Shown: positions 4,226 to 59,360 of the stretch, one piece after another
Layout of the letters: each line of letters opens with the position of its first letter
Position numbering within the stretch: position 1 is the stretch's first letter
Position numbers and translations under genes: made by a program
Source of the DNA: an uncultured Chloroflexia bacterium
Lineage (GTDB): Bacteria; Chloroflexota; Anaerolineae; CG2-30-64-16
Reading direction: 5' to 3'
NCBI GenBank assembly: GCA_963800615.1
Contig: CAWDBO010000037.1
Coordinates: forward strand, 1,152-65,151
DNA: 64,000 nucleotides
The notes under the pieces: model-generated
What the model was told of the DNA's origin: nothing
The model's database searches: none
The model's input: only the letters and a program-made list of their open reading frames with translations

Positions 4226-5260
4226 TTGAAGGCTGTTCGATTAACAGAAATTGGTAAGCCCCTGGAGGCATCAGGAGACCCCACTCCTAGCCCCAGAGCA
4301 CGGCGAGGTGCTCGTGCGGATCAAGGCCGCGGGCATTTGCCATTCGGATGCGCACTACCGCGCCGGCGCGTCGTACGCCGGTCCGCTGCCAGTCACGCTC
4401 GGCCACGAGATCGCGGGCGTGGTCGAGGCGCTGGGCGCCGGCACCCCGCGGACGCGCATCGGCGACCGGGTCAGCCTGCATTACCTGGTCACGTGCGGGC
4501 AGTGCCATCACTGCAACCGCGGCCAGGAGCAGTTCTGCGACACGGGCAAGATGCTGGGCAAGCACCGTGACGGCGGGTACGCGGAGTACATCGCGGTGCC
4601 CGAGCGCGGCATCGTGCCGCTGCCCGACGAGGTCCCGTTCGAGGCCGGCGCGATCATGATGTGCTCGTCGTCGACCTCGTTCCATGCCCTGCGGAAGGCG
4701 CGGCTGCAGCCGGGCGAGACGGTGGCCGTGTTCGGCGCAGGCGGGCTTGGCATGTCCGCGATCCAGCTGGCGAAGGGACTCGGGCGCGGCCGAGGTGTAC
4801 GCGGTGGACATCAACCGTGACAAGCTGGTGCTGGCGGCCAGCTTCGGCGCGATCCCGGTCGACGCTGCCAACGCGGACCCCGTCGAGCTCGATGCGCCAG
4901 CTGACCAACGGCCGGGGCGTCGACGTGGCGCTGGAGCTGATCGGCCTGCCCGTCACGATGCGCCAGGCCGTGCAAGTGCTCGGCGGTGCAGGGCCGGGCC
5001 GCGCTCGGCCGGCATCACCCGGAAGCCGTTCGAGGTGGACTCCTACCAGGAGATCATCGGCCGCGAGGCCGAGATCGTCGGCGTGTCGGATCACCTGCTG
5101 CAGGAGTTCCCGCTGCTCATGGACTTCGCCCGCCGCGGCGTCCTCGACCTCTCGCACGTGGTGACGAACAACAGTCCCGCTGGAGGCCGCGCCCATCAAC
5201 GACGCGCTCGATGCACTCGAGCGCTGGGGCGGCGAAGTGCGGACGGTCATCGTCCCCTGA
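4226..5260 (+). CDS. zinc-dependent alcohol dehydrogenase (MDR family), at least 5 frameshifts
   Basis: MKAVRLTEIGKPLE start, GICHSDAH and GHEIAGVVEALG zinc motifs, CGQCHHCNRG structural-zinc motif and GAGGLG NAD motif. The C-terminal half is scattered over three frames and ends EVRTVIVP-stop. Confidence 0.8.
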
Positions 5261-5311
5261 TCCTGTCTGTACGAGGCGGGTCTCGTAACCCGCGCCCCTT
5301 AGCTCCGGCAA

Positions 5312-5348
5312 ACAAAAAGTGGGCGGTCGTCGTTGACCGCCCACTTTG
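5312..5348. terminator. bidirectional intrinsic terminator between convergent genes
   Basis: acaaaaa-GTGGGCGGTC-gtcgtt-GACCGCCCAC-ttt: a 10-bp GC stem flanked by an A-run and a T-run, between the ADH stop and the cytochrome stop. Confidence 0.75.
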
Positions 5349-5366
5349 ACATTCAGGCCCGAGATG

Positions 5367-7239
5367 CTACTGTGCCGCCTGCTTGTGGCACGTCTGGCAC
5401 TGGTCCACCGTGAAGCTCACGTGGTTCGCCGGGAACGGCTTTAGCTTGCCCTCGCCGTGACAGGTCGTGCAGTCCTTGAACAGGGGGCTGGTAAGGTCGT
5501 GATTGGCCGGGATAGCGGGCGCTGCGGCCGCTGCGCCGCCCGTCGAGCCTGTCCCGCTCGACGCACCCGTTCCCTCGGCCGGCTTATGGCAGCCCGTACA
5601 CTGCTCCGTCGGTGAAGGCCGTGTGGTTCGCAGGATACGGCTTGATCTTGCCTTCGCCGTGACACGTCGTGCAGTCCTTGTACGTGTCGCCTTCGATCGG
5701 GTGCGGGATCGGCGCGGGACCGCCGGCCTGGCCGCCCGTCGTCGCGGTTGCACCCGCCGCAGGCGTCGTTCCACCGGCCGCAGCCGGCTTGTGGCAGCCC
5801 GTGCACGAATCCACCGGGAACGCCGTGTGGTTCGCCGGGAACGGCTTCAGCTTGCCCTCGCCGTGGCACGTCGTGCAGTCCTTGTACGTGTCGCCCTCGA
5901 TCGGGTGCGGGATCGGTGCGGGACCGCCGGCCTGGCCGCCCGTCGTCGCCGTACCGGCCGCTTCTGGCGAAGCCCCAGCCTCAGGCGTCGTGCCCGCCGC
6001 AGGCGTCGCCCCAGCGGCCGCAGCCGGCTTGTGGCAGCTCGTACACTGCTCGGTGGTGAAGGCCGTGTGGTTCGCCGGATACGGCTTGAGCTTGCCCTCG
6101 CCGTGACACGTCGTACAGTCCTTATACGTGTCGCCTTCGATGGGGTGCGGGATCGCCGCCGGGCCGCCCGTTCCGGTCGTCGCGCCCGGCGCAGGCGTGG
6201 GGCCGGGGAGGTGGCACACGGTGCACGACTCGTTAGGCCGCCCCACGTGATCTTCCGGGAACGGCTTGACGCCGTCGCGCCCGTGGCATGTGTCGCACTG
6301 CTCCTGCCCCTGCACGGGATGCGGGATCAGGGCGGCCGCGACCTGGGTCAGGCTGGGGCCCGGGGTGGGCGTCAGCGGGGTGAAGACGTCCTGCCGTTCG
6401 ATCGGCACCGGCAGCGTCGCGATCGCCGTCTGTTCGAAAGTGGCAAACTGGTAGACTGCGAACACGCCGATTAACGCGAGGACGATCGCGATCGGCAGGT
6501 AAATGCGCTCGCGGCGGCGAACGCCGGCCGGATCGGGCCCGGGACGCATCTTGCCCGCTACGCGCTGCTCCAGCTCTTCGCCGTGCTCCTCCTCCATCTG
6601 GTGGCGCGACATCTTGCCCGAGAACATGCTCCTGTTGAACATCTTCACGTGGACGTTATAGAAGTGCCAGATGAGGATGGCCAGGACGGCCAGCACGGCC
6701 TCGCCGCCATGTGCGGCTTTCGCGGCGGGGATAACCTGGCCCGGCAGGAAGCGCGCCGTCGAGATGGGATTCCAGAGCATGAACCCGGTGATCGCCATGA
6801 CGACCGTGCCCCACACCATCGCCCAGTATTCGACCTTCTCGCCGAAGTTGTAGCGGGGCATGCGCGGGTGTTCTTTGCTCAGCCCCAGGTTGTAGCGGAC
6901 GACGTCGAGCGCGTCGGTCAGGTCCTTCAGGCCGGGCAGCATGGTCAGCTCGGTGCGGCGCACCCAGATCTTGTAGCCCAGCACGATGACGTGGTACACG
7001 CTCATGAGCACGATCGTGACCGCGGCGATGCGGTGGATGATGCGGACGGTCTCGATCCCGCCCATCCACGAGATCAATGTGTCGGCGAACGCGTTGCCTG
7101 CGTACTTCTGCGGCAAGCCGGTGAGTGCCAGCAGGCTGAACGAAACCAGCAGCACGATGTGCTCGATGCGCTGGGCCAGGCTGAAACGCACGAAGTACTT
7201 GTCCACGGCGCGATTGGAATTCGTAGCTTGGGTCGCCAT
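5367..7239 (-). CDS. FdnI/HydC-like diheme cytochrome b fused to a C-terminal decaheme cytochrome c domain (5 tandem doubled-CXXCH modules); one frameshift near 5610
   Basis: N-terminal about 250 aa has 4-5 TM helices with conserved His (RIEHIVLL, IHRIAAV, AHGGEAVLAVLAILIWHFYNVH). Ten CXXCH motifs follow (CDTCH, CTVCH, CTTCH, CTSCH, CTTCH, CTGCH, CTTCH, CTGCH, CTTCH, CQTCH). ORFs 5584..7239 and 5367..5774 join if one g is removed at about 5610, turning AFTDGA into AFTTEQC. Confidence 0.85.
5370..6330 (-). repeat. intragenic tandem repeats (about 200-240 bp units) encoding diheme modules with Pro/Ala/Thr/Gly linkers
   Basis: Near-identical DNA blocks recur, e.g. gtcgtgcagtccttgtacgtgtcgcc.tcgatcgggtgcgggatcgg.gcgggaccgccggcctggccgcccgtcgtcgc at about 5667-5750 and about 5870-5955. 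The protein unit is IPHPIEGDTYKDCTTCHGEGKLKPYPANHTAFTxxxCTxCHKP. Confidence 0.85.
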
Positions 7240-7242
7240 CGC

Positions 7243-8343
7243 TTACGCCTCCTTCCGCCGTATGCGGCGAAGGATCCGGCTGACGGCGTCCAGGCCGACG
7301 AACAGCAACATGCCGCCGATGACGGCAGGGATCAGGATCTTGTAGAACAGGTTCACGTAGTAAACCAGGGGTTGATTCGTGCGGCTGGGCGGGAAGTGGC
7401 CGACCCAGCTGCTCGGGAAGTTCGCCGTCGCGTCCGGATGGCAGCGCTTGCACGTCGCCAGCAGGTTTTCCTTAACCACGGTCGCGTTCTGGTCGGTGAC
7501 GGGCAGGATGTTGTGTACGCCGTGGCAGTCCGTGCAGACAGCCTTATTGGTCTGCTGGTCGGGATGCTGCTTTTCGAACAGCGTCACCGTCGTGCCGTGG
7601 AAGTCGGCGACGTAAGTGTTGAACACATCCGTCGAGATGCCGTACTTCTGCATCAGTGCCGCATTCGCGTGGCAGCCGCCGCAGATGTTCGGCGACTTGA
7701 GGCGGAAGGCTGCCGTCGTCGGGTCTTCCTGCGTGTGCGCGCCATGGCAGTCGGTGCAGACCGGGACATCGGGGTTCCCGCTCTCCAGCAGCGCCGCGCC
7801 GTGGACGCTGCCGGCGTACTGGTCATGGATCTGGCTATGGCACTTCTGGCACGTCTGCGAGATCTGCTGCCGGGGCTGGTCAGGCTTCGTTACGTTGTGT
7901 GAGCCGTGGCAGTCCGTGCAGATGGCCGCGTTCCGGTTGCCCGCAGCCAACTCGCGCGCGTGGTTGCTGTCCAGCGACTGCATGTACTGGTCCTGGTGAC
8001 AGGTCTTGCACTGCTGGTAGCGCTCCAGTTGAAACGATCGACGGTCGCCCGCGGTGAGCTTCGGATGCGGGTAGCCGCTGATATTCGTATGGCACGACGT
8101 GCATGTCAGGTTCGCGTGCATCGACGAATGGTACACTTGCGGGTCAACGGTGAGCGGCAAAGTCTCACCGCTGGCGAGCTGAACGCTCAGCCCGGGGTTC
8201 GAGTGGCAGCCAAGACAGGTGGTGTTGTCGCCGCTTTGGGCCTGGGCGCTGGCGCCCGCGACGAGAGCGGTAAAGAGCAGGACCGCGAGGCCCGCTACGA
8301 TCAACCACCGGACGGGTTGCCTGCCTGGGCAAGCAAAGGTCAT
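7243..8343 (-). CDS. nonaheme c-type cytochrome with N-terminal signal peptide and C-terminal TM anchor
   Basis: Intact 366-aa ORF with 9 CXXCH motifs (CLGCH, CTSCH, CKTCH, CTDCH, CQKCH, CTDCH, CGGCH, CTDCH, CKRCH). Signal peptide LIVAGLAVLLFTALVAGASAQA; C-terminal helix ILIPAVIGGMLLFVGL followed by RRIRRKEA. RBS GGAGGAG upstream. The stop is 3 nt before the cytochrome b start. Confidence 0.9.
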   Translation of the reverse strand: MTFACPGRQPVRWLIVAGLAVLLFTALVAGASAQAQSGDNTTCLGCHSNPGLSVQLASGETLPLTVDPQVYHSSMHANLTCTSCHTNISGYPHPKLTAGDRRSFQLERYQQCKTCHQDQYMQSLDSNHARELAAGNRNAAICTDCHGSHNVTKPDQPRQQISQTCQKCHSQIHDQYAGSVHGAALLESGNPDVPVCTDCHGAHTQEDPTTAAFRLKSPNICGGCHANAALMQKYGISTDVFNTYVADFHGTTVTLFEKQHPDQQTNKAVCTDCHGVHNILPVTDQNATVVKENLLATCKRCHPDATANFPSSWVGHFPPSRTNQPLVYYVNLFYKILIPAVIGGMLLFVGLDAVSRILRRIRRKEA

Positions 8344-8516
8344 AGTGGTGACTCCTCCGTGATGGGTTCGAATGATGGCACTACGAACAGGGTAACAAGG
8401 CGCGGAAAGCCGCGGACGTGAATTATAAGCCTGTAACTTTCCGCACTATATGACGCTCGTCATGATTCGGGTGGTGTATTATTTCACACACTGCGTGAGC
8501 GGAGCGAAGGGCAGGG

Positions 8517-8777
8517 CTAGTGCCCGCGCTTCCACAGCAGGAGCGCGGCGATGGTCAGGAGTATCACGGCGACCAGCCCGCCCAGGAAGGGTAAGCCCGC
8601 CTCGAACGTCTCCTCGTTGCCGCCGGCCGCCCACCCACTGGGGGACATCTCTGTCAGGGCAATCGGCCGGCCGTCCGAATGGCGGGCGTCGGGCCACTCC
8701 GGCGCGCGGCTCTGCTCCGGGGCGTCGCCGAGCGGGTATACCCGCTGGCCGCTGATCGTTACAATCGGTTGACTCAT
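8517..8777 (-). CDS. small tail-anchored membrane protein (hypothetical)
   Basis: 86-aa ORF with GGAGAA RBS 8 nt upstream. C-terminal TM helix GLPFLGGLVAVILLTIAALLLW followed by KRGH. Lies directly upstream of the cytochrome pair on the same strand. Confidence 0.45.
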   Translation of the reverse strand: MSQPIVTISGQRVYPLGDAPEQSRAPEWPDARHSDGRPIALTEMSPSGWAAGGNEETFEAGLPFLGGLVAVILLTIAALLLWKRGH

Positions 8778-9162
8778 CGTGCTGGTTCTCCAAGCCGCGG
8801 TTGCTAACTACCTCTCCAGGATAACACGAAAAGTCCCTGGCGCGAAAGCGGGGCTTTCTGAGAAAGCGGCTTTCGCTGCCAGGGACAGTTGCAGGCTTCC
8901 TCCGCCTGCTTCGGGGGACCAGGCGTATCAGGGGTGCTGCGACGAAGCTGCGATGTTCGACGGGATTGCGATGGATACGCCCTATCGAACGTAAACTCTA
9001 TCACGATTCAAGCCGCAGTCTATGATTTGCATCATGTATGTGCCTTCCGTCGCATATTTCTCGCAAAAGTGTATGGAAGCAAAAGCGTGTCATCAACACG
9101 CCGCAGTGATGGAGGACAGGATTAGTTAGCCCTGTCATGTATTCTGCCTGGATGCAAAGGAG

Positions 9163-9196
9163 CCTGCCCTCGTAACGAGGGCAGGCTCTCCTCGTT
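9163..9196 (-). terminator. GC-rich hairpin after valS stop (probable terminator)
   Basis: GAGCCTGCCCTCG-ttac-GAGGGCAGGCTC: a 13-bp stem, with only a weak U-tract (CUUUG) on the minus strand. Confidence 0.5.
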
Positions 9197-9208
9197 TCCG
9201 CGGTCTGC

Positions 9209-11993
9209 CTACGCAAGCTCGGTCAGCCGGTCGCGCAGCCGCGCCGCCCGGCCTTCGAGCTCGCCGAGCTTGTCTCGCTCGCGCGCCACCACGTTCGCCG
9301 GCGCCCGCTGCGCGAACGGGCCCTGCAGCAGCCCCGAGGTGCGCGCGATTTGCGCCTCGGTTTCGGCCAGTTCCTTGGCGAGCCGGTTGCGCTCCGCCTC
9401 GAAGTCGATCAGGTCCGCCAGCGGCAGGTACGTCGTCACCAGCCCGGTCACGAGCGTCAGTGCCTGCGGCGGCGCATCCAGCCGCTCTGCGATCGTCAGC
9501 TGAGCCGGGTCCAGCCGGGCAAGCGAGCACAGGATGTCGGCGTGCCGCTTGAGCATCGGCGCGCGTTCCCCGGCGGCAATACTGGCGTGCAGCGGCTGGC
9601 CCGGCTTCACGTCGTACTCCGCGCGGGCGTTGCGGATCGCGCGCACCATGTCCATGATCTAGCCCCATGTCCGACTCGGCCGCTTCGTCGCGCATGGCGG
9701 TCGCCGGCCACGGCGCGATGATCAGGCCCGCGGGCCACTCGCCTCCGGCATTCCCCACCGCCTGCTTCAGATACCCCCACGTCTCTTCGGTCACGAACGG
9801 GATGTAGGGATGCAGCAGCCGGAGCGACTCGTCCAGCACTTTGATGAGGACGGCCTGCGTGCGCGCCTTGGCTTCGGGCGAACCCCGGTAGATGGCGATC
9901 TTGCTGATCTCCAGGTACCAGTCGCAGAACTCGCTCCAGAAGAAGTCGTAGATCTGGCGCCCGGCCTCGCCGAACTGGAAGGTGTCCATCAGGCGGGTGG
10001 CGTCCGCGAGGGTGGCCGACAGCCGGCTCAGGATCCACCGCTCGGGAAGATCCAGGTTCTGACCTTGCCACAGAGGACTCAGAGCGCTCCGAGGTGGCTC
10101 CGAGGTCTCTGTGCTCTCTGTGGCTGTTCCGTTGCCCAACTGCGACAGGATATAGCGGGTGGCGTTCCAGATCTTGTTCGTGAAGTTCCGGTTGCCCTCC
10201 ACCCGCTGCAGGCTCAGGTTCATGTCGTTGCCCGGCGTCGCGCCCGTCAGCAGCGTGAAGCGCAGCGCGTCCGCGCCCATCGCGGCGATGCCCTCCGGAT
10301 ACTGCTTGCGCACGTAGTCGCTCAGCTCCTCGGGCCGCGCGCCGTCCAGCAGCGCGAGCGGATCGAGCACGTTCCCCGTGGTCTTGGACATCTTCCGGCC
10401 CTGGTCGTCTCTGACGAGGCCGTGCAGGTACACGGTCTCGAACGGGATGTCGTTCGTGTAGAGCAGGCCCTGCATGATCATGCGCGCCACCCAGAAGAAC
10501 AGGATGTCGTAGCCCGTCTCCATCACCGTCGTCGGATAGTAGCGGCGCAGGTCGGGCGTGTCGTCGGGCCAGCCGAGCGTCGAGAACGGCCACAAGCCGG
10601 ACGAGAACCAGGTGTCGAGCACGTCCGGGTCCTGCTCGATGCGCGACGAGCCGCAGCTCTCGCAGCGATCCGGGTCGATCCGGGCCACGGTCGTATGGCC
10701 GCACTCCGCGCAGTGCCAGGCCGGGATGCGGTGTCCCCACCACAACTGCCGGCTGATGCACCAGTCGCGGATGTTCTCCAGCCAGTTGTAATACACCTTC
10801 GTGAAGCGCTCCGGGATGATCTCGATGCGGCCCGAGCGCACCGCTTGCAGGCCCATGTCGGCCATGGGCTTGATTTTCACGAACCACTGCGTGCTGACCA
10901 TCGGCTCCACGATTTCGCCCCCGCGCTGCGAGCGCGGCACCTGTGTACGGTAAGCTTCAACCTTGATCGTCAGCCCCGCGGCTTCCATGTCGGCCCACAG
11001 TTTCTTGCGCGCTTCGAACCGGTCCATGCCCGCGTACGGCCCGCCCGCGGCGCTCACCTTGGCGTCCTTGTCGAGCATCCCGATGATTTGCAGGCCATGC
11101 CGCTGCCCGATCTCGAAGTCGTTCGGGTCGTGCCCGGGCGTGATCTTGAGCGCCCCCGTCCCAAACTCCATGTCCACGTACGTGTCGTGGATCACGGGGA
11201 TGGGCCGCTTGAGGATGGGCACCAGGCACGTCGCACCGATCAGGTGGCGGTAGCGCTCGTCGTCCGGATGCACCGCCACTGCGGTGTCGCCCAGGATCGT
11301 CTCCGGCCGCGTCGTCGCCACCGGGATGTAGCCCTTGCCCGGTCCGTCCTCCAGGTTCGCGCCCGCGATCGGGTACTTGAAGTAGTAGAGGGCCGCGTCT
11401 TCCTCGGTGTACTCCACCTCCAGGTCGCTGACCGCGGTCTGCAGCCCGGGCGACCAGTTGATCAGGTACTCCCCGCGGTAAATCAGGCCCATCCGGTACA
11501 GCCGCACGAACGCCTCGCGCACCGCCTGGCTCAGCCCTTCGTCCATCGTGAAGCGCAGCCGGTCCCAGTCGCACGACGCGCCCAGCCGGCGCAGCTGCCG
11601 CACGATGTGGCCGCCGTACTTTTCCTTCCACTCCCACGTCCGGCGCAGAAACTCGGCCCGCCCCAGGTCCTGCCGGCGCAACCCCTCGCGCGCCAGCATC
11701 TTCTCCACCTGCAGCTGCGTGGCTATGCCCGCATGGTCATAGCCCGGCACCCACAGCGCCGCGTACCCCCGCATCCGCTTGTACCGGATCATCAGGTCCT
11801 CGAGCGACACGAACATGGCGTGGCCCAGGTGCAGCTCGCCAGTGATGTTCGGCGGCGGGATCGAGATCACGAACGGCTGAGCGTCCGGCGGAGCAATCTC
11901 TGGCTTGAAGTAGCCGTTCGACTCCCACCAGTCGTAGATCCTGCGCTCGGAGGCGCTGGGATCGTAGGTCTTGGGCATTTCGAATGATGTCAT
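9209..11993 (-). CDS. valS: valine--tRNA ligase, one frameshift near 9658
   Basis: Class I HIGH motif (PPNITGELHLGHA), KMSKT motif (GRKMSKTTGN), and full-length ValRS-like sequence. The C-terminal coiled coil (ORF 9209..9655, MDMVRAIRNARAE...) is in another frame: ctagatc should read ctgatc. RBS GGAGAGG. Confidence 0.95.
10068..10123. repeat. imperfect palindromic word-repeat (CACAGAG words) inserted in frame inside valS
   Basis: ccacagaggactcagagcgctccgagg-tgg-ctccgaggtctctgtgctctctgtgg. Translated on the minus strand it gives ATESTETSEPPRSALSPLW in the variable loop between NKIWNATRYIL and ERWILSRL. Confidence 0.6.
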
Positions 11994-12029: not shown

Positions 12030-12494
12030 TCAGGGATGGTCGTTCGGGTTGTTGGTTGTCAGACCCTCGCCACGCGCTGCCTCGAGCAACTCGCCATTGG
12101 CGCTGATGAAAATCGGCGGACCCGAGGCCAACCGGGCCAGGTCGTTCGCGAGATCCAGCGCCGTTGCGAGATGCAGTGCATCGTAGGCGCGCAGCCCATG
12201 CGCGACCGCCAACTCACCTGCAGCCTTGATTACGATCCGCGACACAGGTGAGGTGTGAACAAGCGCTCGAATGTCCTGATTCAGTTCGGTAATGATCACC
12301 TCGCGCCTCGGCTTGCCGATTCGCTTCTCTCGGTAGGCGCGGCCGAATGCGCTCATGACCTCCACTGCGACGAGTTCGCTGCTAAGAAACATATCGTCTT
12401 CGGCCTGATCCATCAGGTTGTTCATCCAGGTGCTCCCCGACTCCCTCACATACCGTTTGACGAGAGCGCTGGCATCAAGGTAATAAACGGGCAT
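12030..12494 (-). CDS. vapC: PIN-domain toxin VapC
   Basis: 154 aa. YYLDASALVKRY (N-terminal acidic residue), ELVAVEV, and LRAYDALHLATAL are typical PIN motifs. The start overlaps the vapB stop (ATGA). Confidence 0.85.
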   Translation of the reverse strand: MPVYYLDASALVKRYVRESGSTWMNNLMDQAEDDMFLSSELVAVEVMSAFGRAYREKRIGKPRREVIITELNQDIRALVHTSPVSRIVIKAAGELAVAHGLRAYDALHLATALDLANDLARLASGPPIFISANGELLEAARGEGLTTNNPNDHP

Positions 12495-12817
12495 CAGCGC
12501 GGTCCCCTATCTTCGATAATCCACTCTGACAAGGGAACTCCAGCGAGCCATTCCCGTATCTCGTCGAGCGTTGCTGGTTCGACCCCTTCAATCCACGGCA
12601 GCAAGTCACCCGGGTCCGAAAGTTTCCCCGCCTCGCATAAGGCGCGGAGGATGCGCTCCTTCTCGGTTTCAGGCTTCGGCTCCACTCCCAACCCGGAAGC
12701 CAATGTATCAACGACGGCCTGGTTAAGCGAAACATTGTACTCGGCGGCCCGTTCCTTTAGCGCACGGTGCAGCTGCGCCGGCAAGCGTAGGGTTAACTTC
12801 ACACTCTCTTCACTCAT
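12494..12817 (-). CDS. vapB: ribbon-helix-helix antitoxin VapB
   Basis: MSEESVKLTLRLPAQLHRALKERAAEYNVSLNQAVVDTL is a CopG/Arc-like RHH. GGGAGG RBS lies 6 nt before the ATG at 12817; the ORF track starts earlier, at 12841. Confidence 0.8.
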   Translation of the reverse strand: MSEESVKLTLRLPAQLHRALKERAAEYNVSLNQAVVDTLASGLGVEPKPETEKERILRALCEAGKLSDPGDLLPWIEGVEPATLDEIREWLAGVPLSEWIIEDRGPR

Positions 12818-12833
12818 CGTTTCCTCCCGATTT

Positions 12834-12863
12834 GCCACCATAGTGGCATGCCACTATGGTGGC
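12834..12863. promoter_or_regulatory. 30-bp perfect palindrome, candidate VapB operator
   Basis: GCCACCATAGTGGCA|TGCCACTATGGTGGC, located between the T-box terminator and the vapB RBS. Confidence 0.55.
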
Positions 12864-13210: not shown

Positions 13211-13238
13211 ATTATATCACTTCGCCGCTTACTGTCAA
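13211..13238 (-). promoter_or_regulatory. consensus sigma-70-type promoter driving the T-box leader
   Basis: TTGACA (13238-13233), 16-nt spacer, TATAAT (13216-13211). The -35 overlaps the stop codon of the upstream gene. Confidence 0.75.
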
Positions 13239-14629
13239 CCCCCCGGGACCGCCCGGCGCAAATCTGCAAACACCCGCGTCAGCTCCGCCCGCAGCTCTGA
13301 CTCCGTCGGCAAGCTGGCGATCAATTGCTCGGCCTCCCGCATGCGCCGCCGCGCATCCGGAAAGTCCACCAACCCTTGCGTCACCTGCTGGCGCACGGGC
13401 AGCAGCGTCTCGATCGCGGCGTCAAAGGTCGCGCTGGCCGAGCTCGGTCCTTGCTCCGGTTTCCTCACCGCCGCGAGCGCGCGGTCCGCGTCGATGTCCG
13501 CAGGCACAAGCAACCACTTTCCGGTCTCCGCCGCCATCGCCCGATAAGCCTCCGCGGCAGGCTCCATGTCGCTCTCGAAAATGTGGCTGCGGTCGACCCT
13601 GTGCTGCCCCAGGTGTGTCCTCTGCACCGCCAGCTGGTGGATGCCTCCCGGACCTTCGAGGATGGCGCCGGTCAGGCGATAACCTCTCGGCGGCGGGAGC
13701 ACCCAGGCCCAAAGGACACGGAGCCAGGCAAGCGGACCTCCGTAGGCTTCTCGCTCCAACTCGATCGGGAATTGCTTGTCCCGCACGAGGTGATTCCACT
13801 GTGTCAGCTTTTCCGTGATGCTCACGGGAATGACGCGGGTGGCGGTGTCGGCCTCTGTCGTGAACGGGCTGGTGAATTCGCCAATGAGGAACCCGGGCGG
13901 CACTGCAGGGCGGCCAAGCAGCGGCAGGATGCGGGTGTACCAAAGCTCGCGCAGCGCCCCCAGCAGCCAGCGCAGCAGCGCGCCCAGGAGGTACAAGAGA
14001 GCTATCAACACGAGTCCGGCCACGACAAAGCCGAAGGCGTCGAGGACCTTCGGGCCGGTGGCCGAGGCCAGCGTGGCTGCGGGCACCGGCGTTTCGGCGG
14101 GAGCCGGCGTCTCAGTCGGCAGCGGCGCGAGTTGCGTTGCCTGGATGGCGGCCTTGCCGCCGAGCGCAGCCTGCAGGCCCTGCAGCGCCTCCGCATTCCC
14201 GCGCGTGTCCTCCGCGATCTGGGAATAGAGCGTCGCGGCGCTGTCGTAATCCTTGCCTTCGAGGTAGGCCTTGGCCAGCACCAGGCGCGCCTGTAACTCG
14301 GTGAAGGTGGCCGTCGGGCTTGGGGTAAGCGTGGGCGTGATCGTCGCGGATGGCGCTACCGCTGTGCCGGTCCTGGCGGCAGGAGCCGAGGCCGTCCCGG
14401 TCGCCGCTGCCGGCGTTCCGGCCGCCCCCGCAGCAGTCGTCCCTGTGATGGCCGCGCTTGCGGCAGGCGCCGCAGCTGTGCTCGCGGCAGGTGCGGTCGC
14501 CTGGGTGACGTCAGGAGCTTGGGTAGGCGTTGCTCGGGTGGTGCAGCCGGCAAAGACGAGGACAAGCGCAAGGGCCACCAACCACGGCAGCAGGCTGCGC
14601 GCCGCACGGCGCGTCCCGCGTCGACTCAT
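13235..14629 (-). CDS. putative lipoprotein with Thr/Ala/Pro-rich linkers, internal TM helix and uncharacterised C-terminal domain
   Basis: Start chosen at MSRRGTRRAARSLLPWLVALALVLVFAGC (lipobox-like, GGAGG RBS 6 nt upstream). TPR-like segment LVLAKAYLEGKDYDSAATLY; TM helix FGFVVAGLVLIALLYLLGALL. No family recognised for the last about 250 aa. Confidence 0.5.
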   Translation of the reverse strand: MSRRGTRRAARSLLPWLVALALVLVFAGCTTRATPTQAPDVTQATAPAASTAAAPAASAAITGTTAAGAAGTPAAATGTASAPAARTGTAVAPSATITPTLTPSPTATFTELQARLVLAKAYLEGKDYDSAATLYSQIAEDTRGNAEALQGLQAALGGKAAIQATQLAPLPTETPAPAETPVPAATLASATGPKVLDAFGFVVAGLVLIALLYLLGALLRWLLGALRELWYTRILPLLGRPAVPPGFLIGEFTSPFTTEADTATRVIPVSITEKLTQWNHLVRDKQFPIELEREAYGGPLAWLRVLWAWVLPPPRGYRLTGAILEGPGGIHQLAVQRTHLGQHRVDRSHIFESDMEPAAEAYRAMAAETGKWLLVPADIDADRALAAVRKPEQGPSSASATFDAAIETLLPVRQQVTQGLVDFPDARRRMREAEQLIASLPTESELRAELTRVFADLRRAVPGG

Positions 14630-14794
14630 GGCAACCTCCGGGGCGAAACGATGATGGTCGGGCGAACGCAATGGCCGGTCGCGCTTCTGGTGACTGCCGT
14701 ACCGCCTGGCGCGACGCGGCCGGATTATAACATCCTTCACTTGTAGCGGCAACAACCCGAAGCCGCGGTTAAGATTCTCGCGTCGCGCCGCCGG

Positions 14795-14803
14795 TGCTAT
14801 AAT
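14795..14803 (+). promoter_or_regulatory. extended -10 promoter element (TGcTATAAT) upstream of yitJ-like gene
   Basis: TGCTATAAT lies 39 nt before the ATG at 14842. No good -35 was seen. Confidence 0.4.
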
Positions 14804-14841
14804 CCTGCGGCCGCCGGCACTGCCCGGCGACAGGAGTGGTG

Positions 14842-16725
14842 ATGGCGCACCCTTTTCTTGAACGCTTGGCCCGCGGCCCAGTGCTTGCCGATGGCGCAAT
14901 GGGGACCATGCTGCATGGCCGCGGCGCGCGGGTTGACCAGTGTCTCGACATGCTCAACCTCGAACAGCCGGAATGGGTGCGCGAGATCCACCTCGCCTAC
15001 GTCCGCGCGGGTGCGGAAGTCATCCAAACCAACACGTTTGGCGCCAGTGCGCCGCGCCTCGTCGACTTCGGGCTGGAAACCCGGGTGCGCGAGATTAATT
15101 TCCAGGGCGTCAAGCTTGCGCGGGAGGCCCGCGAGATCAGCGGCCAGCCCGTCTGGCTGGCGGGATCGGTAGGCCCGCTTGGGAAACGTGCGCGCCGCGG
15201 CGATGAGTTGCTGCGCGGGGTCGCCGAGGCCGCGTTCAAGGAGCAGATCGCGGCGCTCTGGGAGGCGGGCGCGGACCTGTTGGTCCTGGAGACGTTCTCC
15301 GACCTGCCAGAGCTGGTGCTTGCGGTGCAGGTTGCGAAGGCGACGACCGACCTGCCGGTGGTTGCCGAAGTGACGTTCGGCAACGACGGCGTCAGCGGCG
15401 ACGGCGCGTGGCCGAGCGACGTCGCCCATGCCCTGGCCGCTGCCGGCGCCGATGTGGGCGGCGTCAACTGCTCCCTGGGCCCCGCGCGCCTGCTTGATTT
15501 TGTCGCCGAGATGCACGCCGCGGAGCCGGGCCTCCGGCTGTCGGCCATGCCCAACGCCGGCCTGCCTTATCGGGCGGGCGAGCGGATGATTTACCCCACT
15601 GCGCCGCACTATTTCGCGGAGCGGGTGCCTCAGTTCGTCGCCCAAGGCGCCGCGCTGATCGGCGGGTGCTGCGGTACGACCCCGGCGCATACCCATGCCA
15701 TGCGGGCTGCGCTCGACCAGGCCGTCGGCGCGCCCCAGCGTAAGGAGGAGCTCACGCCGCTGCCCATGGTCCGGGTGAGCTCCCCCGGCGCGGGCGTCAC
15801 GGACGAAGAAGCACCGGAGCCGACAGGATTGCTCCGGAAGATCAAGGCGGGCCAGTTTGTCGTCAGCGTCGAAGTTGACCCACCCCGCGGTTTCAGCGCC
15901 GCCAAGATGCTCGAAGGTGCTCGGATCGCCCAGGAACACGGTGCGGACGCGGTGAACGTCGCCGACAGCCCGATGGCTCGCGTGCGGATGGGCGCGCTGG
16001 CCCTCTGCGTGCTGATCCAGCAGCAGGTTGGGATCGAGACCATCCTGCACCTCACTACCCGTGATCGCTCCCTGATGGGATTGCAGGCCGACCTGATCGG
16101 CGCGCACGCGCTGGGCGTCCGCAACATCATCGCGTTGACAGGCGATCCCCCCAGCCTGGGGGACACGCGCGAGAGCAGCGCCGTGTACGACGTCGATTCG
16201 ATCGGGCTTGCGAAGATTGTCAGCCAGTTCAACCAGGGCCTCGATCGTTCGGGCAAGCCTTTCGGGGGCAAGGCCGGGTTTACCATCATCGTCGCCAGCG
16301 ACCCAACCCGCGCCGACCTGGTCCGCGAGGTCGATCGCTTCCACCGCAAGGTGGGCTCCGGCGCGCACCTGACCATGACGCAGCCGATCTTCGATGCCGA
16401 GCTCTGGCGGCGCTTCTTCAGCCTGTACGAAGAACGGCACGGCCCCTTCCCGGTGCCGGTGCTGATCGGTATCCTGCCGCTGCAGAGCCACCGCCACGCG
16501 TCTTTCCTGCACAACGAGGTTCCCGGCATCACGATCCCCGAGGCCGCCCTCGTCCGAATGGAGCGGGCCGGCGCTGAGGGCCGCAGGGAAGGCGTGAAGA
16601 TGGCGCAGGAACTCCTGCTCGAGCTGACGGAGCTGCCGCGGGTGCAGGGCGTCTACCTCATGCCCAGCTTCGGCCGCTACGAGGTGGCCTGCGAGGTGCT
16701 CGACGTGGTGAAAGACCGCGCTTAG
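14842..16725 (+). CDS. yitJ: bifunctional homocysteine S-methyltransferase / 5,10-methylenetetrahydrofolate reductase
   Basis: Intact. The N-terminal half is Hcy-binding ([23 protein letters not shown] zinc site). The C-terminal half is MTHFR-like ([24 protein letters not shown]). AGGAG RBS 5 nt before the ATG. Confidence 0.9.
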
Positions 16726-42753: not shown

Positions 42754-42866
42754 CATGACGCTGCGCGTCACGGCGCAGCCTGGCTCACTGAGTTCAATCC
42801 TGGGCGCCTGCCACCGGCTGAGTGGCCCGCGCCCACCTCACCAGCGTCGATCAAGGAGGCTACGGG

Positions 42867-43665
42867 ATGAAGTTTGTTGTCTGTGCAAAGCTTACGCCCG
42901 ACACGGAGCAACTGGGCGACGTCAAGCCGCAGGATGTCGGCTCCGACGATCTGGGCGTCACCATGGTCCTGAACCCGTGGGACGAATTCGCGGTCGAAGA
43001 GGCTCTGCAGCTGCAGGAGCGCTTCGACGGCGAGGCCGCGGTCATCACGGTGGGCGGTGAGGAATCGACCGAGGCCTTGAAGCGGGCCGTGGCGATGGGC
43101 ATCGAGGAAGCCGTCTTGCTTTCCGACGACCTGTTCCAGGGCAGCGACGCGTGGGGCACCGCGCACATCCTGGCGCAGGCGATCAAGAAAGTGGGCGACT
43201 ACACGCTGATCCTGACCGGGAAGCAGTCCGTCGACGGCAACGGCGGCCTGGTCGGCCCCGGCGTCGCGGCTCAGCTCGGCATCCCCTTCGTCTCCAACGT
43301 CAACAAGATCATCGACATGACCGAGGACAGCGCCACGGTGCAGCGGAACCTCGATGAGGGCGTGCAGACCGTTCAGCGTCAAGCTCCCGGCCGTTCTGGC
43401 GGTCAGCACCGAGATCAACGAGCCGCGCTACCCGAACTTCATGGGCATCCGCAAGGCATCACGGATGCAGTATCCTGCCGTCAAGGCGGCCGGCCTGCCC
43501 GGCCTTGACCAGGCCCGGCTGGGCGAGAAAGCGGCGTTGCTCAAGTGGACCAACCTGCGCAAGCCGCCGGCCCGCACCGGCAAGGTGGAGATCATCCAGG
43601 GTGGCTCACCTGCGGAGACCGCGGCGATGTTGGTCGATAAGCTGATTGCAGAGAAGGTCATTTAG
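42867..43665 (+). CDS. etfB: electron transfer flavoprotein beta subunit, one frameshift near 43375
   Basis: MKFVVCAKLTPD, NPWDEFAVEEAL, LILTGKQSVDG and VSTEINEPRYP. AAGGAGG RBS. An extra c breaks the frame. Confidence 0.9.
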
Positions 43666-43685
43666 GCTGAGGAGAGGACCGACCT

Positions 43686-44667
43686 ATGAGCATTCTCGTT
43701 TACGTGGATCAATATCAGGGCACGGCCAAGCCGGTTTCCTGGGAAATGTTGGGCAAGGCGCGCGATCTCGCTGCGAAGCTGAATACGGACGTCGCGGCCG
43801 TGGTCATCGGCCAGGGCGTTGGCGCCATCGCACAGGAAGCGGCCGCCTACGGTGCGGATAAGGTCTTCCTCGTGGATGGGCCTGAGTTCGCCCACTACCG
43901 CAACGGCGCCTATGCGGCCGCCCTGGTGGCCGCAATCGACGCGGCCAACGCCAAAGTCATCCTTGCCCCCGCCACCACCGGCGCGCGCGACGTTGCCGCG
44001 ATGGCGGCTGCCCAGTGCAACATCGGCCTTGCTGCGGAAGTGACCAATCTCGACGTGGATGCGAACGGCAAGCTGGTCGCCGAGCGCCCCGTCTTCTCGG
44101 GCAACATCATCGCCGACATCGTCTATGAGGGCGACCGCCAGATGGCGACCGTGCGCGTCCGCAGCTTCCCGATGCCCGAGAAGGGCGCCGCCGGCGGCCA
44201 GATCGTGCCGCTGCCGGTCAACCTCACCGGCGCCGCGCTCGGCCGAGGAGATCACCGGCTTCGAGGGCGTCGAAACCGGCGAGCTTGACGTCCAGAACGC
44301 GGGCATCATCGTCTCCGGCGGTCGCGGGGTGAAGGGGTCGGAAGGCTTCGAGCCGATCCGGCGGCTCGCCAAGGTGCTCGGCGGCGCGGTCGGCGCCTCC
44401 CGCGCGGCCGTCGATGCCGGCTGGATCCCCTACGTCCACCAGGTCGGGCAGACCGGCAAGACCGTCCGCCCCGACCTCTACATCGCGGCCGGCATCTCGG
44501 GCGCCATTCAGCACCTCGCCGGCATGAGCGGCGCAAAGACCATCGTCGCGATCAACAAGGACAAGGACGCGCCGATCTTTCAGGTCGCCCGCTACGGCAT
44601 CATCGGCGACCTGTTCGACATCGTGCCCGCCCTGGAGCAGGCATTCAAGCAAAAGCTCGGCAAGTAG
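43686..44667 (+). CDS. etfA: electron transfer flavoprotein alpha subunit, one frameshift near 44235
   Basis: ILVYVDQ...; the C-terminal FAD domain reads [45 protein letters not shown]. Confidence 0.9.
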
Positions 44668-44682
44668 CTTCGCCGATCCTTA

Positions 44683-44714
44683 GGAACCAGGTTTCTGTCA
44701 GAAACCTGGTTTCT
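44683..44714. repeat. P2 element: two adjacent 15-bp palindromes
   Basis: gGAACCAGGTTTCTgtcAGAAACCTGGTTTCT, 16 nt after the etfA stop and 30 nt before the rpsA -35. Confidence 0.75.
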
Positions 44715-44743
44715 GGTCGTCGCATGAACGTGCGGCTCGCGCG

Positions 44744-44773
44744 TTGACAGCGGCCGCGCCTTTCGATTATAAT
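44744..44773 (+). promoter_or_regulatory. consensus promoter upstream of rpsA
   Basis: TTGACA, 18-nt spacer, TATAAT, about 300 nt upstream of the rpsA ATG. Confidence 0.65.
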
Positions 44774-45073
44774 AGGTCTTTGCCAGCGCAGGCAGACGTC
44801 TCGGCGCGAGGGGCGCTTGCTCCCGCGCCTTTCATCGCGCTAGACCCTTCGTGTCGGGGTCGACGCACCGGGTCATTGATAAGGGGCGAAGTCCGACTGG
44901 GCGCCGTGAACGGATCGGTGAGCCAGCCGGGCCTATTTTTTGTCGGCTCGAACCAGCGCGCGTGCGAGCAGAGCTCGCGCCGGAGCAGTCTCGCACTTAG
45001 GAGCGGGTTGCTCGCAAGCGTCCGGGGTTCGAGAGTGCGCATAACATCATCCAGCGTTTCGGAGGTTCCTTTC

Positions 45074-46468
45074 ATGTCAACGTCTTTACCACCGACCAAG
45101 CCGCCGGCGGAAGTCCACCCGATGCAAGCCCTGCTCGATCAGGGCGGGTACGACATGCCGCAGCGCGGCGATATCCGCGAGGGCACTGTCATCTCGGTCA
45201 CCCCCCAGGAAGTCGTCATCGACCTGGGCCTGAAACGAGAAGCCATTGTGCCGGCTAACGACCTGTCCCGCCTGGACAAGTCGACCCTCGCAGAAGTCCA
45301 GGAAGGCACGACCTGGCCGGTTTACATTCTGCAACCGTCGGATCGGGAAGGGAACCTCATCGTCTCGCTATCCCGCGCGCTCCAGGAGAAAGACTGGCTG
45401 ATCGCGCAGGAGAAGATGGAAGCCAATGAGATGTTCGAGGCTCGCGTCACCGGTCACAACGCAGGCGGCCTCGAAGTCGAATTCGGCAAGCTGCGCGGTT
45501 TCGTCCCGGCATCGCACCTGTCCTCGCTCCCGCGCGAGATGTCGCCGGAAGAACGCAAGACGCACCTGGCCACCTACGTCGGCAAGACCATCCCGGTCAA
45601 GGTCGTCGAGGTTGACCGCAAGCGCCGCCGCCTGATCATGTCCGAGCGGGCCGCCCGCCGCCGCTGGCAGCGCGAGCATCGCAAGCAGCTCCTGGACGAG
45701 ATCCAGGTGGGCGAGGTCCGTGAGGGGACCGTCCGCAGCCTGTCCGAGTTCGGCGCCTTCGTCGATCTCGGCGGGGCCGACGGCCTGGTCCACATCTCCG
45801 AGTTGGCCTGGTTCCCGGTCGCCCACCCGAGCGAGGTGCTCAAGGTCGGCCAGGTGGTCGAAGTCAAGGTGCTGCGGATCGACAAGCAGCGCGAGCGCGT
45901 CGGCCTGAGCCTGAAGCGCGTCCAGCCCGATCCGTGGAGCCACATCGACGAGCTGTACAAGCCCGGCCAGTTGGTCGAGGCAGTCGTGACCCGCGTCACC
46001 GATTTCGGTGCGTTCGTCCGGCTGCGCAGCGGCGTCGAAGGCCTGCTCCACGTCTCCGAGATGGCCGACATCCGGCCCGACCATCCGCAGAGCCTCGTCT
46101 CGCCTGGCGACCTGCTCCTGCTGCGCGTCCTGCGCATCGAGCCTGACCGCCGCCGCATCGGCCTGAGCCTGCGCCAGGTCTCCGAGACCGAGTGGTCCGA
46201 GTGGGCCGCCAGCTACCGCGAGAAGCACGCCGCGGCTGCGGCCGAGGAAGCCGAAGCTGCGGCAGCCGCGGAAGCGGCCGCGGCTGCGCCCGAGACCGCG
46301 GAAGCCGACATGGACCAGTTCGCGATGGTCGGCGACGAGCTTCCGGTGGAAGAGGCCGAAGTGCCGCTCACCGCCGAAGAGGAAGCCGGGCTCCAGGCCG
46401 TCACGGCTGAGGAACCCGAGGCTCCGGAAGCCGAAGCAGCAGCGGAAGAAGCCCCCGTGGCCGGTTGA
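45074..46468 (+). CDS. rpsA: 30S ribosomal protein S1 (four S1 domains plus acidic Ala/Glu-rich tail; tail may extend to about 46783)
   Basis: GGAGG RBS. Repeated S1 motifs (GTVISV, ARVTGHNAGGLEVEF, GTVRSLSEFGAFVDLGG, AVVTRVTDFGAFVRL). The EAxAAEEAPVA repeat pattern continues past the stop at 46468 in shifted frames. Confidence 0.9.
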   Translation: MSTSLPPTKPPAEVHPMQALLDQGGYDMPQRGDIREGTVISVTPQEVVIDLGLKREAIVPANDLSRLDKSTLAEVQEGTTWPVYILQPSDREGNLIVSLSRALQEKDWLIAQEKMEANEMFEARVTGHNAGGLEVEFGKLRGFVPASHLSSLPREMSPEERKTHLATYVGKTIPVKVVEVDRKRRRLIMSERAARRRWQREHRKQLLDEIQVGEVREGTVRSLSEFGAFVDLGGADGLVHISELAWFPVAHPSEVLKVGQVVEVKVLRIDKQRERVGLSLKRVQPDPWSHIDELYKPGQLVEAVVTRVTDFGAFVRLRSGVEGLLHVSEMADIRPDHPQSLVSPGDLLLLRVLRIEPDRRRIGLSLRQVSETEWSEWAASYREKHAAAAAEEAEAAAAAEAAAAAPETAEADMDQFAMVGDELPVEEAEVPLTAEEEAGLQAVTAEEPEAPEAEAAAEEAPVAG

Positions 46469-46640
46469 AGCTGAAGCAGCAGCGGAAGAAGCCCCGTGGC
46501 GGCTGTGAAGCTCCCGGTTGACGAGCAGCAGTGGAAGAAGCGCCTGTGGCCGGGGAAGCCGAAGCCGCAGTCGAAGAAGCGCCCGTGGCCATCGAAGCTG
46601 AGGCTGAAGCGCCCTCCTTGCCTGTAATCACGAGCGAGGT
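46420..46640 (+). repeat. about 40-bp tandem repeats (gaagc.gaagcagcagcggaagaagccccgtggc)
   Basis: At least 4-5 imperfect units span the annotated rpsA stop. Confidence 0.7.
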
Positions 46641-54836: not shown

Positions 54837-54912
54837 CACCACCAGGGCACAAAGAACCGAAGGCCCACAAAGGAGACTTTGTGAACCTTCGGTTCTTTGT
54901 GCCTTGGTGGTG
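54837..54912. repeat. word-hairpin repeat (family P3), about 34-bp stem
   Basis: CACCACCAGGGCACAAAGAACCGAAGGcCCACAAAG-gaga-CTTTGTGaACCTTCGGTTCTTTGTGCCTTGGTGGTG. Confidence 0.8.
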
Positions 54913-54921
54913 GGTTCAGCC

Positions 54922-55926: not shown

Positions 55927-55942
55927 AGCTTATCTCCTTAGG

Positions 55943-56737: not shown

Positions 56738-56770
56738 GTTTCCTCCTCACCCAGACCTCCCAGGCGTCCA

Positions 56771-56801
56771 GACCTCCGAGGTTTCGTAAACCTCGGAGGT
56801 C
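56771..56801. repeat. P1 palindromic element (plus upstream half-copy at 56752-56760)
   Basis: GACCTCCGAGGTTTcgtAAACCTCGGAGGTC, between the acd stop and the etfB start. Confidence 0.8.
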
Positions 56802-56825
56802 TCCGGCATCCCGAAGACCCCCACC

Positions 56826-57994: not shown

Positions 57995-58015
57995 TCTTCC
58001 CTCCATGACACGCCA

Positions 58016-58048
58016 AGAAACCAGGTTTCTGCCGGAAACCTGGTTTCT
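58016..58048. repeat. P2 element: two adjacent 15-bp palindromes
   Basis: AGAAACCAGGTTTCTgccgGAAACCTGGTTTCT, in the 48-nt spacer between the two acd genes. Confidence 0.8.
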
Positions 58049-58054
58049 TATTTG

Positions 58055-59221: not shown

Positions 59222-59260
59222 GGCGGCTCCTTTCTCAAGACCAGAGCGCTGTCGCCGGTC

Positions 59261-59347
59261 TAACTTCGTAACCACAAAGTATCCAAGAGACGAAGGTTCA
59301 CAAGGACCTTTGTGTGACCTTTGGTTCTTCGATTCTTCGTGGTTAAG
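59261..59347. repeat. word-hairpin repeat (family P3)
   Basis: cttcgtaaccacaaag...cgaaggttcacaaggacctttgtgtgacctttggttcttcgattcttcgtggtta. Confidence 0.7.
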
Positions 59348-59360
59348 GCGCAGCCTCAAG

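Follow-up and report, generated by a model that had tools for sequence, protein, structure and literature searches.

Sequence Analysis of a Split CbcL-Type Cytochrome Module with a String of Diheme Units in an Uncultured Chloroflexia Bacterium

A 64,000-nt stretch of DNA from an uncultured Chloroflexia bacterium (GCA_963800615.1, contig CAWDBO010000037.1, positions 1,152-65,151; hereafter the window) was analyzed for a pair of cytochrome genes. The first gene encodes a nonaheme c-type cytochrome (c9), and the second encodes a diheme cytochrome b that continues, past a fifth transmembrane (TM) helix, into a tail of diheme c-type modules. Judged from sequence, the c9-b pair is a split module of the CbcL/MtrH/MtoC type, because the homologies of the b domain, of the c9 anchor junction, and of open reading frames (ORFs) in which the two parts are fused all combine to this assignment. 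The architecture is well supported. With a rough probability of 0.6, the locus functions as a menaquinol:cytochrome c oxidoreductase of the CbcL type that consists of two subunits and has a tethered relay for electrons of its own. For this function we infer the heme loading, the c9-b complex, the electron direction, the partners, and the reach of the tail. The two subunits comprise the following features.

7243-8343, minus strand: c9, a nonaheme c-type cytochrome of 366 residues, with a signal peptide at about 8239-8343 and an anchor helix at 7282-7338
6535-7239, minus strand: diheme cytochrome b domain of the b-c fusion gene, residues 1-235, with four TM helices
6436-6507, minus strand: fifth TM helix, residues 245-268, with a conserved FExTAIxT motif after it

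The b domain matches PF01292 (1e-13) and aligns with the CbcL-type protein P0331 at 31% identity over 224 residues (E 1e-29), with all five candidate histidines in register and the same 15-residue histidine spacing in helix 4. These histidines (His27, His69, His83, His177, and His192) are present in 49-51 of 51 aligned sequences, the window and Escherichia coli FdnI counted. Five candidate b-heme histidines have been described for CbcL itself (10.1101/2021.04.15.440034). In profile-profile comparisons using hhalign, the b domain matches the CbcL-type sequences with an E of 2e-18 (probability 99) over only its C-terminal 60%, FdnI with 1e-10, and the b part of the fused c9-b ORFs with 9e-54. 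The CbcL references are Desulfuromonadales/Geobacteraceae metagenomic CbcL-type proteins, reached via machine-read alignment fragments of the supplement to PMC9129911. The query made from these fragments, a partly garbled alignment, returned 13 short proteins, and a query with P0280 returned 7031 CbcL-type matches, the best 120 of which are all 350 residues or shorter. Four metagenomic, Desulfuromonadales-like proteins of about 345 residues (P0316, P0323, P0301, and P0311) consist of a CbcL-type b domain without c hemes and an N-terminal domain of about 60 residues. This additional domain, which we take by eye from its sequence to resemble the N-terminal domain of GspE/MshE, has a counterpart in MshE that binds cyclic-di-GMP.

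The only solved relative of the b domain by sequence is E. coli FdnI (1kqf_C, E 2.8e-12), which is also the best PDB fold match (TM-score 0.72) for its AlphaFold model, where the predicted local distance difference test score (pLDDT) is 80-97. Hydrogenase-1 cytochrome b gives a weaker, nonsignificant fold match. Residues His27, His69, and His177 correspond to His18, His57, and His155 of FdnI, respectively, His192 is one residue off FdnI His169, and His83 is an extra, conserved residue. A preliminary description of this DNA had proposed an FdnI/HydC-type cytochrome b with a fifth TM helix; this is borne out, and every candidate heme-ligand histidine is in place. The homologues are labeled "formate dehydrogenase gamma subunit" in their sources (JGI annotation), and the top NCBIfam matches, like the top PDB match, are to FdnI. 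An anchor for a formate dehydrogenase or a hydrogenase is nevertheless hardly credible. The scores against the NCBIfam FdnI models (55.8 bits versus a cutoff of 339, and 54.9 versus 115.85) are far too low, a multiheme cytochrome is the partner conserved at every locus, and the b domain is nearer to CbcL-type sequences than to FdnI. No catalytic subunit of either enzyme occurs among the conserved neighbor families identified, which are c9, valyl-tRNA synthetase (ValRS), alcohol dehydrogenase (ADH), other cytochromes, and Ccm. Membership in the FdnI family was rejected on the same scores and because the conserved partner is c9 and not FdnG/FdnH.

The fifth helix is modeled by AlphaFold2 as a helix from residue 237 to 275 with a pLDDT above 90. 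Together with the FExTAIxT motif it was found in 13 of the 13 complete split-type b subunits checked, including those with no tail. The profile match to CbcL-type sequences extends through this helix, and the CbcL-type proteins finish just past their own final TM helix; for these two reasons the fifth helix is most likely ancestral and the heme tail the added part.

In agreement with the preliminary description, c9 has a signal-like helix at its N-terminus and a TM helix near its C-terminus (residues 336-354), and its CXXCH motifs number exactly nine. Conservation is complete (41/41 split-type homologues) for these motifs and for nine further histidines (76, 93, 128, 149, 181, 203, 249, 277, and 316); the heme motifs match those of the fused CbcL-type ORFs column by column. 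Met231 is conserved among the split-type homologues only, and c9 has no methionine in common with the fused CbcL-type ORFs. Nine bis-His c hemes are predicted from this pattern; all nine c hemes of CbcL are bis-His (PMC9129911). The last 110 residues of c9, which comprise the anchor helix, the segment before it, and the sites of hemes 8 and 9, are colinear with the junction of c domain and anchor in the CbcL-type protein P0338 (E 1e-10). The anchor helix, ILIPAVIGGMLLFVGLDAV, contains no histidine. A sequence search of the PDB with c9 and with a fused homologue gave a single weak match, 28pb_A "Cytochrome c" (E ~1e-5), which was discarded as an unusable anchor. The c9 and b genes are the only multi-CXXCH ORFs in the 64 kb of the window, so their CXXCH count is far above chance.

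Homologues in which c9 and b form a single ORF, c part first, were found in Verrucomicrobiota, Terriglobia, and KSB1 (L042, L043, and L045-L049). Their identity is 29-34% to c9 and 33-38% to b, and the nine heme motifs of c9 have aligned counterparts in them. In the window, a stop codon and a 3-nt gap part c9 from b, which starts at 7239, and the two are likewise separate genes in the 42 split-pair loci of Chloroflexota and Acidobacteriota; one polypeptide, as in CbcL, is not what these genomes encode, and fused ORFs are confined to the seven loci named above. The earlier statement that the b gene begins 3 nt downstream of c9 agrees with the ORF coordinates, and the proposal of a CbcL-like module with its nine-heme unit split off is supported by the b-domain, junction, and fused-ORF matches. 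A 2018 survey of the CbcL family (PMC6295460) lists zero Chloroflexi members and assigns the heme motifs, whose number varies from 3 to 23, to the N-terminal part. The survey sought fused proteins, which accounts for the absence of Chloroflexi CbcL-type oxidases from it.

The tail of the b subunit contains five modules of about 41 residues with the pattern H-x10-CXXCH-x12-(N)H-x8-CXXCH. The modules and the site of a frameshift between them are as follows.

6211-6333, minus strand: module 1, residues 303-343, of a separate "proximal" type that is more conserved
6031-6153, minus strand: module 2, residues 363-403, with distal His365 and His391 invariant and pLDDT ~80-85
5791-5913, minus strand: module 3, residues 443-483, in a 204-nt tandem repeat, identical at 36 of 41 residues to module 2 and at 36 of 41 to module 4
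5586-5709, minus strand: module 4, corrected residues 511-551, split by a 1-nt insertion
5607-5612, minus strand: frameshift site, one surplus base in GACGGAGCAG; homologue alignments pass from frame -2 to frame -3 at 5609-5614
5385-5507, minus strand: module 5, corrected residues 578-618, followed by KQAAQ and a stop codon at 5367-5369

In module 1, H307, C315/C318/H319, H331, and C339/C342/H343 are invariant in 55 sequences. The two extra histidines of every module are invariant or nearly so, and both hemes of each module are predicted to be bis-His for that reason. Module 1 is 62% identical between proteins and 36% identical to the later modules; for the latter, the identity is 45% from one protein to another and 53% among modules of a single protein. 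Modules 2-4 of the window share 36-37 of 41 residues. The linkers are 15-35 residues long, rich in P/A/T/G, and amount to about 130 residues in total. In the AlphaFold model the modules have a pLDDT of 80-93, module 4 excepted, and the linkers fall below 50, and these linkers are predicted to be disordered. A Foldseek search with the whole model returned matches for the b domain only and nothing significant for the small diheme modules. Simple chain geometry would give a reach of tens of nanometers at full stretch. The tail had been described earlier as a "heme wire", but a rigid wire is unlikely with disordered linkers and a tethered, diffusing relay fits better.

As assembled, the b ORF stops at 5584 after 551 residues and contains only 7 CXXCH motifs; the remaining three lie out of frame in an ORF at 5367-5774. 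The DNA at the frameshift site is TTCACCGACGGAGCAG, versus ...ACCGAGCAG in the earlier repeat units. When one G (~5607) is dropped from GACGGAGCAG, a protein of 623 residues with 10 CXXCH motifs in five modules is obtained. The direct translation of module 4 is broken after TAFTD, and the correction brings back EQCTGCH. The decaheme tail of five doubled-CXXCH modules that had been claimed for this gene therefore holds after the 1-nt correction and does not hold for the sequence as assembled; the earlier count of 10 hemes had read through the frameshift with the correction unmentioned. Among the top 120 homologues, the number of CXXCH motifs is even in 115 (4 in 5 proteins, 6 in 24, 8 in 56, 10 in 23, and 12 in 7, plus one with 2), and the 7 of the window is one of five odd counts. 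The orthologue P0008, with the same synteny, is intact at 608 residues and 10 hemes, and the c-repeat region belongs to the same gene in such intact homologues.

Further frame switches were found by comparison with intact syntenic orthologues in ValRS (1, at ~9660), the zinc ADH (2), the GH4 glycosidase (3), and a 392-residue gene (1). Between 1300 and 12100 the window has at least 8 frame switches in five genes, near 1625, 3415, 3530, 3670, 4775, 5175, 5607, and 9660. A broken essential ValRS speaks for an indel-rich assembly and not for biology, and the assembly appears to be rich in indel errors, as long-read assemblies can be. The surplus base in the b gene is very probably one such error, because at least four neighboring genes, the essential ValRS included, are frameshifted as well. 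Programmed frameshifting was rejected, as several unrelated neighboring genes carry similar indels. Were the frameshift genuine, the strain would make a truncated 7-heme protein or keep a decaying pseudogene. The stop at 5584 in the given sequence agrees with this, but ValRS and three other neighbors are frameshifted likewise, the downstream frame, which runs up to a terminator, keeps 75% identity to the C-terminal module of L001, the closest relative, and the site sits in the 204-nt tandem repeat (89% identity). A genuine frameshift is accordingly very improbable. Many ORFs elsewhere in the window also look fragmented.

A database search gave 2154 matches, the best of which are all fusions of a b domain with multiheme sequence. 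Forty-nine genome loci were compared, mostly from metagenome-assembled genomes (MAGs) of Anaerolineae and other Chloroflexota, with six from Acidobacteriota. In the split loci c9 lies immediately upstream of b without exception (42/42). Some b subunits have no tail; others end in one class-I-like heme, in a diheme module with one additional heme, or in 2-6 diheme modules (4-12 hemes), and the module number differs between close relatives, with five in the window and four in L001. The preliminary description had treated the tail as something that this b subunit "has gained"; the fusion belongs instead to a large family of variable module number. The proposed rationale of crossing a thick envelope is weakened, since the same fusion, with short 4-heme tails, occurs in Acidobacteriota. 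The Acidobacteriota are diderm.

The length of the tail varies with the genes nearby. For tails of at least 4 hemes, another ORF with at least 4 CXXCH within ~8 kb was found in 0 of 17 loci; for tails of 0-3 hemes, 21 of 22 loci have one to four such ORFs (Fisher's exact p = 3.5e-10, kinship ignored). The b subunit has repeatedly grown or lost its bead string, matching the absence or presence of separate multiheme genes nearby. Seven loci are tail-less, five of them with a 14-heme c subunit, and these come from Ardenticatenaceae, Promineifilaceae, and related MAGs. The neighbors in the tail-less group include Ccm maturation genes, NapC/NirT-like proteins with 7 to 16 hemes, 10-heme proteins, and proteins with MtrC-like domains. 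In L018 and L021, a NapC/NirT-like protein directly downstream of b bears 4-5 of the same diheme modules. The neighbors in the long-tail group are housekeeping genes, with ValRS in 11 of 19 loci and ADH in 10.

Several of these loci have features of their own. Fourteen CXXCH motifs are present in the c subunits of L034, L035, L038, L039, and L040 (Ardenticatenaceae, Promineifilaceae, and other Chloroflexota/Anaerolineae MAGs), where b ends right past the fifth helix; the flanks carry 6-, 8-, and 10-heme genes, some with collagen-like Gly-rich N-termini, and MtrC-like domains. The b subunits of L022, L023, L025, L026, L028, L029, L031, L032, L036, L037, and L041 have a single-heme C-terminal domain behind a Pro/Thr-rich linker. 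This domain is class-I-like in L022 and L028 (CGMCHG... and CSACHG..., respectively), the two that were read. L022 also adjoins Ccm system I genes (CcmE, CcmF, CcmH, and a thioredoxin), homologues of which occur in 7-9 short-tail loci.

One 49-residue module was used as the query against 1.84 billion representative proteins (E <=1e-3), and 451 clusters were obtained. The b domain is present in only 12 of the best 149. A lipoprotein (P0126) has five modules with P/T/S linkers, and P0127, P0140, P0142, P0147, P0149, and P0159 are of the NapC/NirT type followed by 3-7 modules. P0159 (1700 residues) starts with a NapC/NirT domain and also contains six cbb3-type monoheme domains, a CBM96 carbohydrate-binding module, and many diheme modules; in P0150 (602 residues), which has no NapC/NirT match, diheme modules occur together with immunoglobulin (Ig)-like domains. 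These accessory domains suggest that the heme strings of P0159 and P0150 are at the cell surface. P0146 (2344 residues, 31 "matches") was discarded as a false positive, being a translated DNA repeat devoid of cysteine motifs. Since the string occurs on NapC/NirT-type and lipoprotein carriers besides b, it is a reusable part found on two unrelated kinds of quinol-dehydrogenase-like anchor.

A broader proposal is tentative and somewhat less probable than not. Bead strings may be a general modular "extension cord" in Chloroflexota and some Acidobacteriota, on at least three kinds of anchor (CbcL-type cytochrome b, NapC/NirT-type cytochromes, and lipoproteins), working by tethered diffusion. The bead number would evolve quickly, shifting by tandem duplication to fit the distance bridged. 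If true, this would be a distinct physical way of wiring the quinone pool to the cell exterior, and it would mark many Anaerolineae, usually treated as fermenters, as extracellular respirers.

In the mechanism proposed for the split CbcL-type oxidoreductase, c9 would be exported and held by its C-terminal helix at the outer face of the cytoplasmic membrane, and the c9-b pair would correspond to a CbcL whose one polypeptide is divided after the anchor helix, ahead of the first helix of b. The fifth helix would carry the b chain from the cytoplasm to the outer face, with the five diheme modules outside. Menaquinol would be oxidized at the b domain, and electrons would cross the membrane via the two b hemes to the heme chain of c9 and/or to proximal module 1. 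They would then be handed from bead to bead by collision of the tethered modules, with no fixed wire, and the relay would reach acceptors some nanometers to tens of nanometers off the membrane. The tail would stand in for multiheme cytochromes of the periplasm or the cell surface, for which tail-less relatives have separate genes close by.

A number of points weigh against this mechanism. No terminal reductase, porin, or outer conduit was found nearby, and the neighbors are housekeeping genes (ValRS and ADH). The FdnI fold puts the quinone site on the cytoplasmic side, which is established for Fdn-N and has been argued for CbcL (10.1101/2022.08.31.506072); outward flow from such a site would conserve no energy. 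The FdnI-type layout suits inward flow as well, and the reverse electron direction is equally possible with it. Disordered linkers do not guarantee heme-to-heme contact. The comparison sequences are metagenomic and Desulfuromonadales CbcL-type proteins and not GSU0274 itself, and the neighborhood statistic ignores phylogeny, the two tail classes being largely clades. The b gene is frameshifted as assembled, and a true truncation keeps a small probability.

With the direction reversed, the complex would be an MtoC-like quinone reductase. Outside the cell, Fe(II), reduced humics, a cathode, or a partner cell could, for example, supply the tail with electrons, and c9-b would reduce menaquinone on the cytoplasmic side and build a proton motive force. 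The FdnI fold and the aligned ligands fit the Fdn-N direction, Fe(III) reducers and Fe(II) oxidizers alike have CbcL/MtoC/MtrH homologues, with no sequence feature to tell them apart (PMC6295460), and the cultured Chloroflexi member Ardenticatena maritima performs both anodic and cathodic electron transfer (PMC5808234). The electron transfer flavoprotein (ETF)- and beta-oxidation-type ORFs of the window, known from translations only, suggest instead a heterotroph in need of electron sinks. All-bis-His hemes are usually of low potential, and neither carbon-fixation nor donor-specific genes were seen nearby. We regard this direction as unlikely.

The tail may alternatively be a tethered periplasmic carrier, analogous to PpcA or cytochrome c_y, that serves ordinary membrane or periplasmic reductases of nitrite, nitrous oxide, oxygen, or similar acceptors, and not an extracellular conduit. 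The location of 11 of 19 long-tail loci beside ValRS, among other housekeeping neighbors and without an island for extracellular electron transfer, suggests such a constitutive, general role. The diderm Acidobacteriota with their short 4-heme tails agree with it, and periplasmic PpcA is an electron acceptor of CbcL itself (PMC9129911). A short hop would not, however, call for long linkers and as many as 12 hemes, while CBM96 on one string protein and Ig-like domains on another point to the cell surface, and the tail-less relatives are in large multiheme clusters with MtrC-like domains. A purely periplasmic carrier is thus quite unlikely in our judgment, and the oxidoreductase with an outward relay is preferred.

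Sediments, soils, digesters, and activated sludge harbor abundant Anaerolineae and related Chloroflexota, whose respiratory electron disposal is poorly known. A conserved split CbcL-type module is now shown in Chloroflexota, often beside ValRS. This family is common in metagenomes, is unstudied, and probably passes respiratory electrons outward from the membrane. If the tail works as a relay, the order c9, then b, then n diheme modules would be a sequence marker by which uncultured lineages that transfer electrons outside the cell, or over long distances in the periplasm, could be recognized, the natural series of 4-12 hemes could be used for testing tether length versus reach and rate, and the widespread misannotation "formate dehydrogenase gamma subunit" would be corrected.

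The remaining features of the locus are a small ORF upstream of c9 and a hairpin downstream of b.

8517-8777, minus strand: small ORF of 86 residues with a hydrophobic C-terminal helix at residues 64-82 (ORF call and hydropathy)
5316-5347, minus strand: terminator-like hairpin of the intrinsic type, with a 13-bp stem and a T run, that ends the operon

The ORF list places the small ORF, c9, and b on the minus strand in the same direction, and the earlier account of three codirectional genes, the first encoding a small tail-anchored protein, is upheld by this and by the single C-terminal hydrophobic helix. The small ORF is separated from c9 by 173 nt and is coding-like, with a GC content at third codon positions of 0.84. 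It gave no match in Pfam and NCBIfam searches. Protein-level homologues with 42-66% identity occur at the same place in L001, L002, L003, L005, L008, and L013, and in more distant loci the ORF is missing or uncalled. The small ORF is possibly the first gene of the operon; the protein appears to be conserved in the closest relatives only, and its link to the c9-b module is tentative. The hairpin lies ~20 nt past the corrected stop of b, and no sigma-70-like promoter was found in the region 5200-9300. The gene order common to the window and six loci is MetH-like, hypothetical, ValRS, small ORF, c9, b-c, zinc ADH, and GH4.

Just upstream of ValRS, a 154-residue PIN-like ORF (12030-12494, minus strand) overlaps by 1 base a 115-residue ORF with a ribbon-helix-helix-like N-terminus (12494-12841, minus strand). 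This pair looks like a VapBC-type toxin-antitoxin system, and L050 has a gene called as a PF01850 PIN protein in the corresponding place upstream of ValRS. Between the MetH-like gene and ValRS there is a 554-residue ORF (13235-14899, minus strand) with a TM helix and low-complexity stretches rich in Ala/Thr/Pro; the syntenic loci retain this ORF, and its L001 orthologue has no Pfam match. Farther along the window, at 42800-46500 and 54900-64000, the translations include ETF alpha/beta-like ORFs with an adjacent 594-residue ORF, as well as acyl-CoA dehydrogenase-, enoyl-CoA hydratase-, hydroxyacyl-CoA dehydrogenase-, and thiolase-like ORFs. By their sequences, ORFs of the ETF and beta-oxidation types would supply the quinone pool.

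The locus was compared with known systems. The literature searched contains no paper linking CbcL to Chloroflexota/Anaerolineae in a split, tailed form, and no described equivalent was found there of the architecture that the preliminary description had not recognized as described. The Hmc/Nhc/Tmc-type complexes of sulfate reducers and ExtN/ExtO were rejected, with marginal NCBIfam matches only (E 1e-2 to 3e-4, far below the cutoffs). The closest system is CbcL (GSU0274, WP_010940947.1) of Geobacter sulfurreducens. The pair resembles it in a nine-heme bis-His c domain with an anchor helix, in the five conserved histidines of its FdnI/HydC-type diheme b domain, and in the additional TM helix at the end. 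FeS, Mo, and NiFe partners are absent from both systems, and both would link quinol/quinone to cytochrome c. Unlike in CbcL, c and b are here on separate genes, and b runs on into 2-6 diheme modules on flexible linkers.

The split itself is shared with CbcBA (GSU0593-0594), a multiheme c subunit with a C-terminal TM anchor and a separate PF01292-type diheme b subunit. CbcA has 7 hemes and a C-terminal domain proposed to donate a b-heme histidine, and CbcB has 3 such histidines and reportedly no CbcL homology (10.1101/2021.04.15.440034). Here, c9 has 9 hemes and an anchor helix devoid of histidine, and b has five histidines and is CbcL-like; an identity with CbcBA, compared by description only, was rejected on these three differences. 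Joshi et al. mention cbcB-cbcA fusions from Chloroflexi. FdnI (1KQF chain C) has the same four-helix fold and three equivalent histidines. The b subunit differs from FdnI in a fourth ligand displaced by one residue, the extra invariant His83, a cytochrome c partner in place of FdnGH, the fifth helix, and the heme tail.

The design of the tail resembles PgcA of G. sulfurreducens, an extracellular triheme lipoprotein with PTx/PAx repeats between its hemes and homologues of 1-6 hemes (PMC5732950). Both space a variable number of heme units by long P/T/A-rich repeats, a likeness of design only. PgcA, unlike the b tail, has single-CXXCH units, is a released lipoprotein, and has no quinol dehydrogenase fusion. 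The NapC/NirT-type string proteins P0127, P0140, P0147, P0149, and P0159 have P-rich linkers and the diheme module of the b tail (E down to 1e-40), with the string likewise at the C-terminus of a membrane-anchored quinol-dehydrogenase-like domain. Their anchor is PF03264, unlike that of the b subunit, some add class-I cytochrome c domains, and P0159 adds CBM96.

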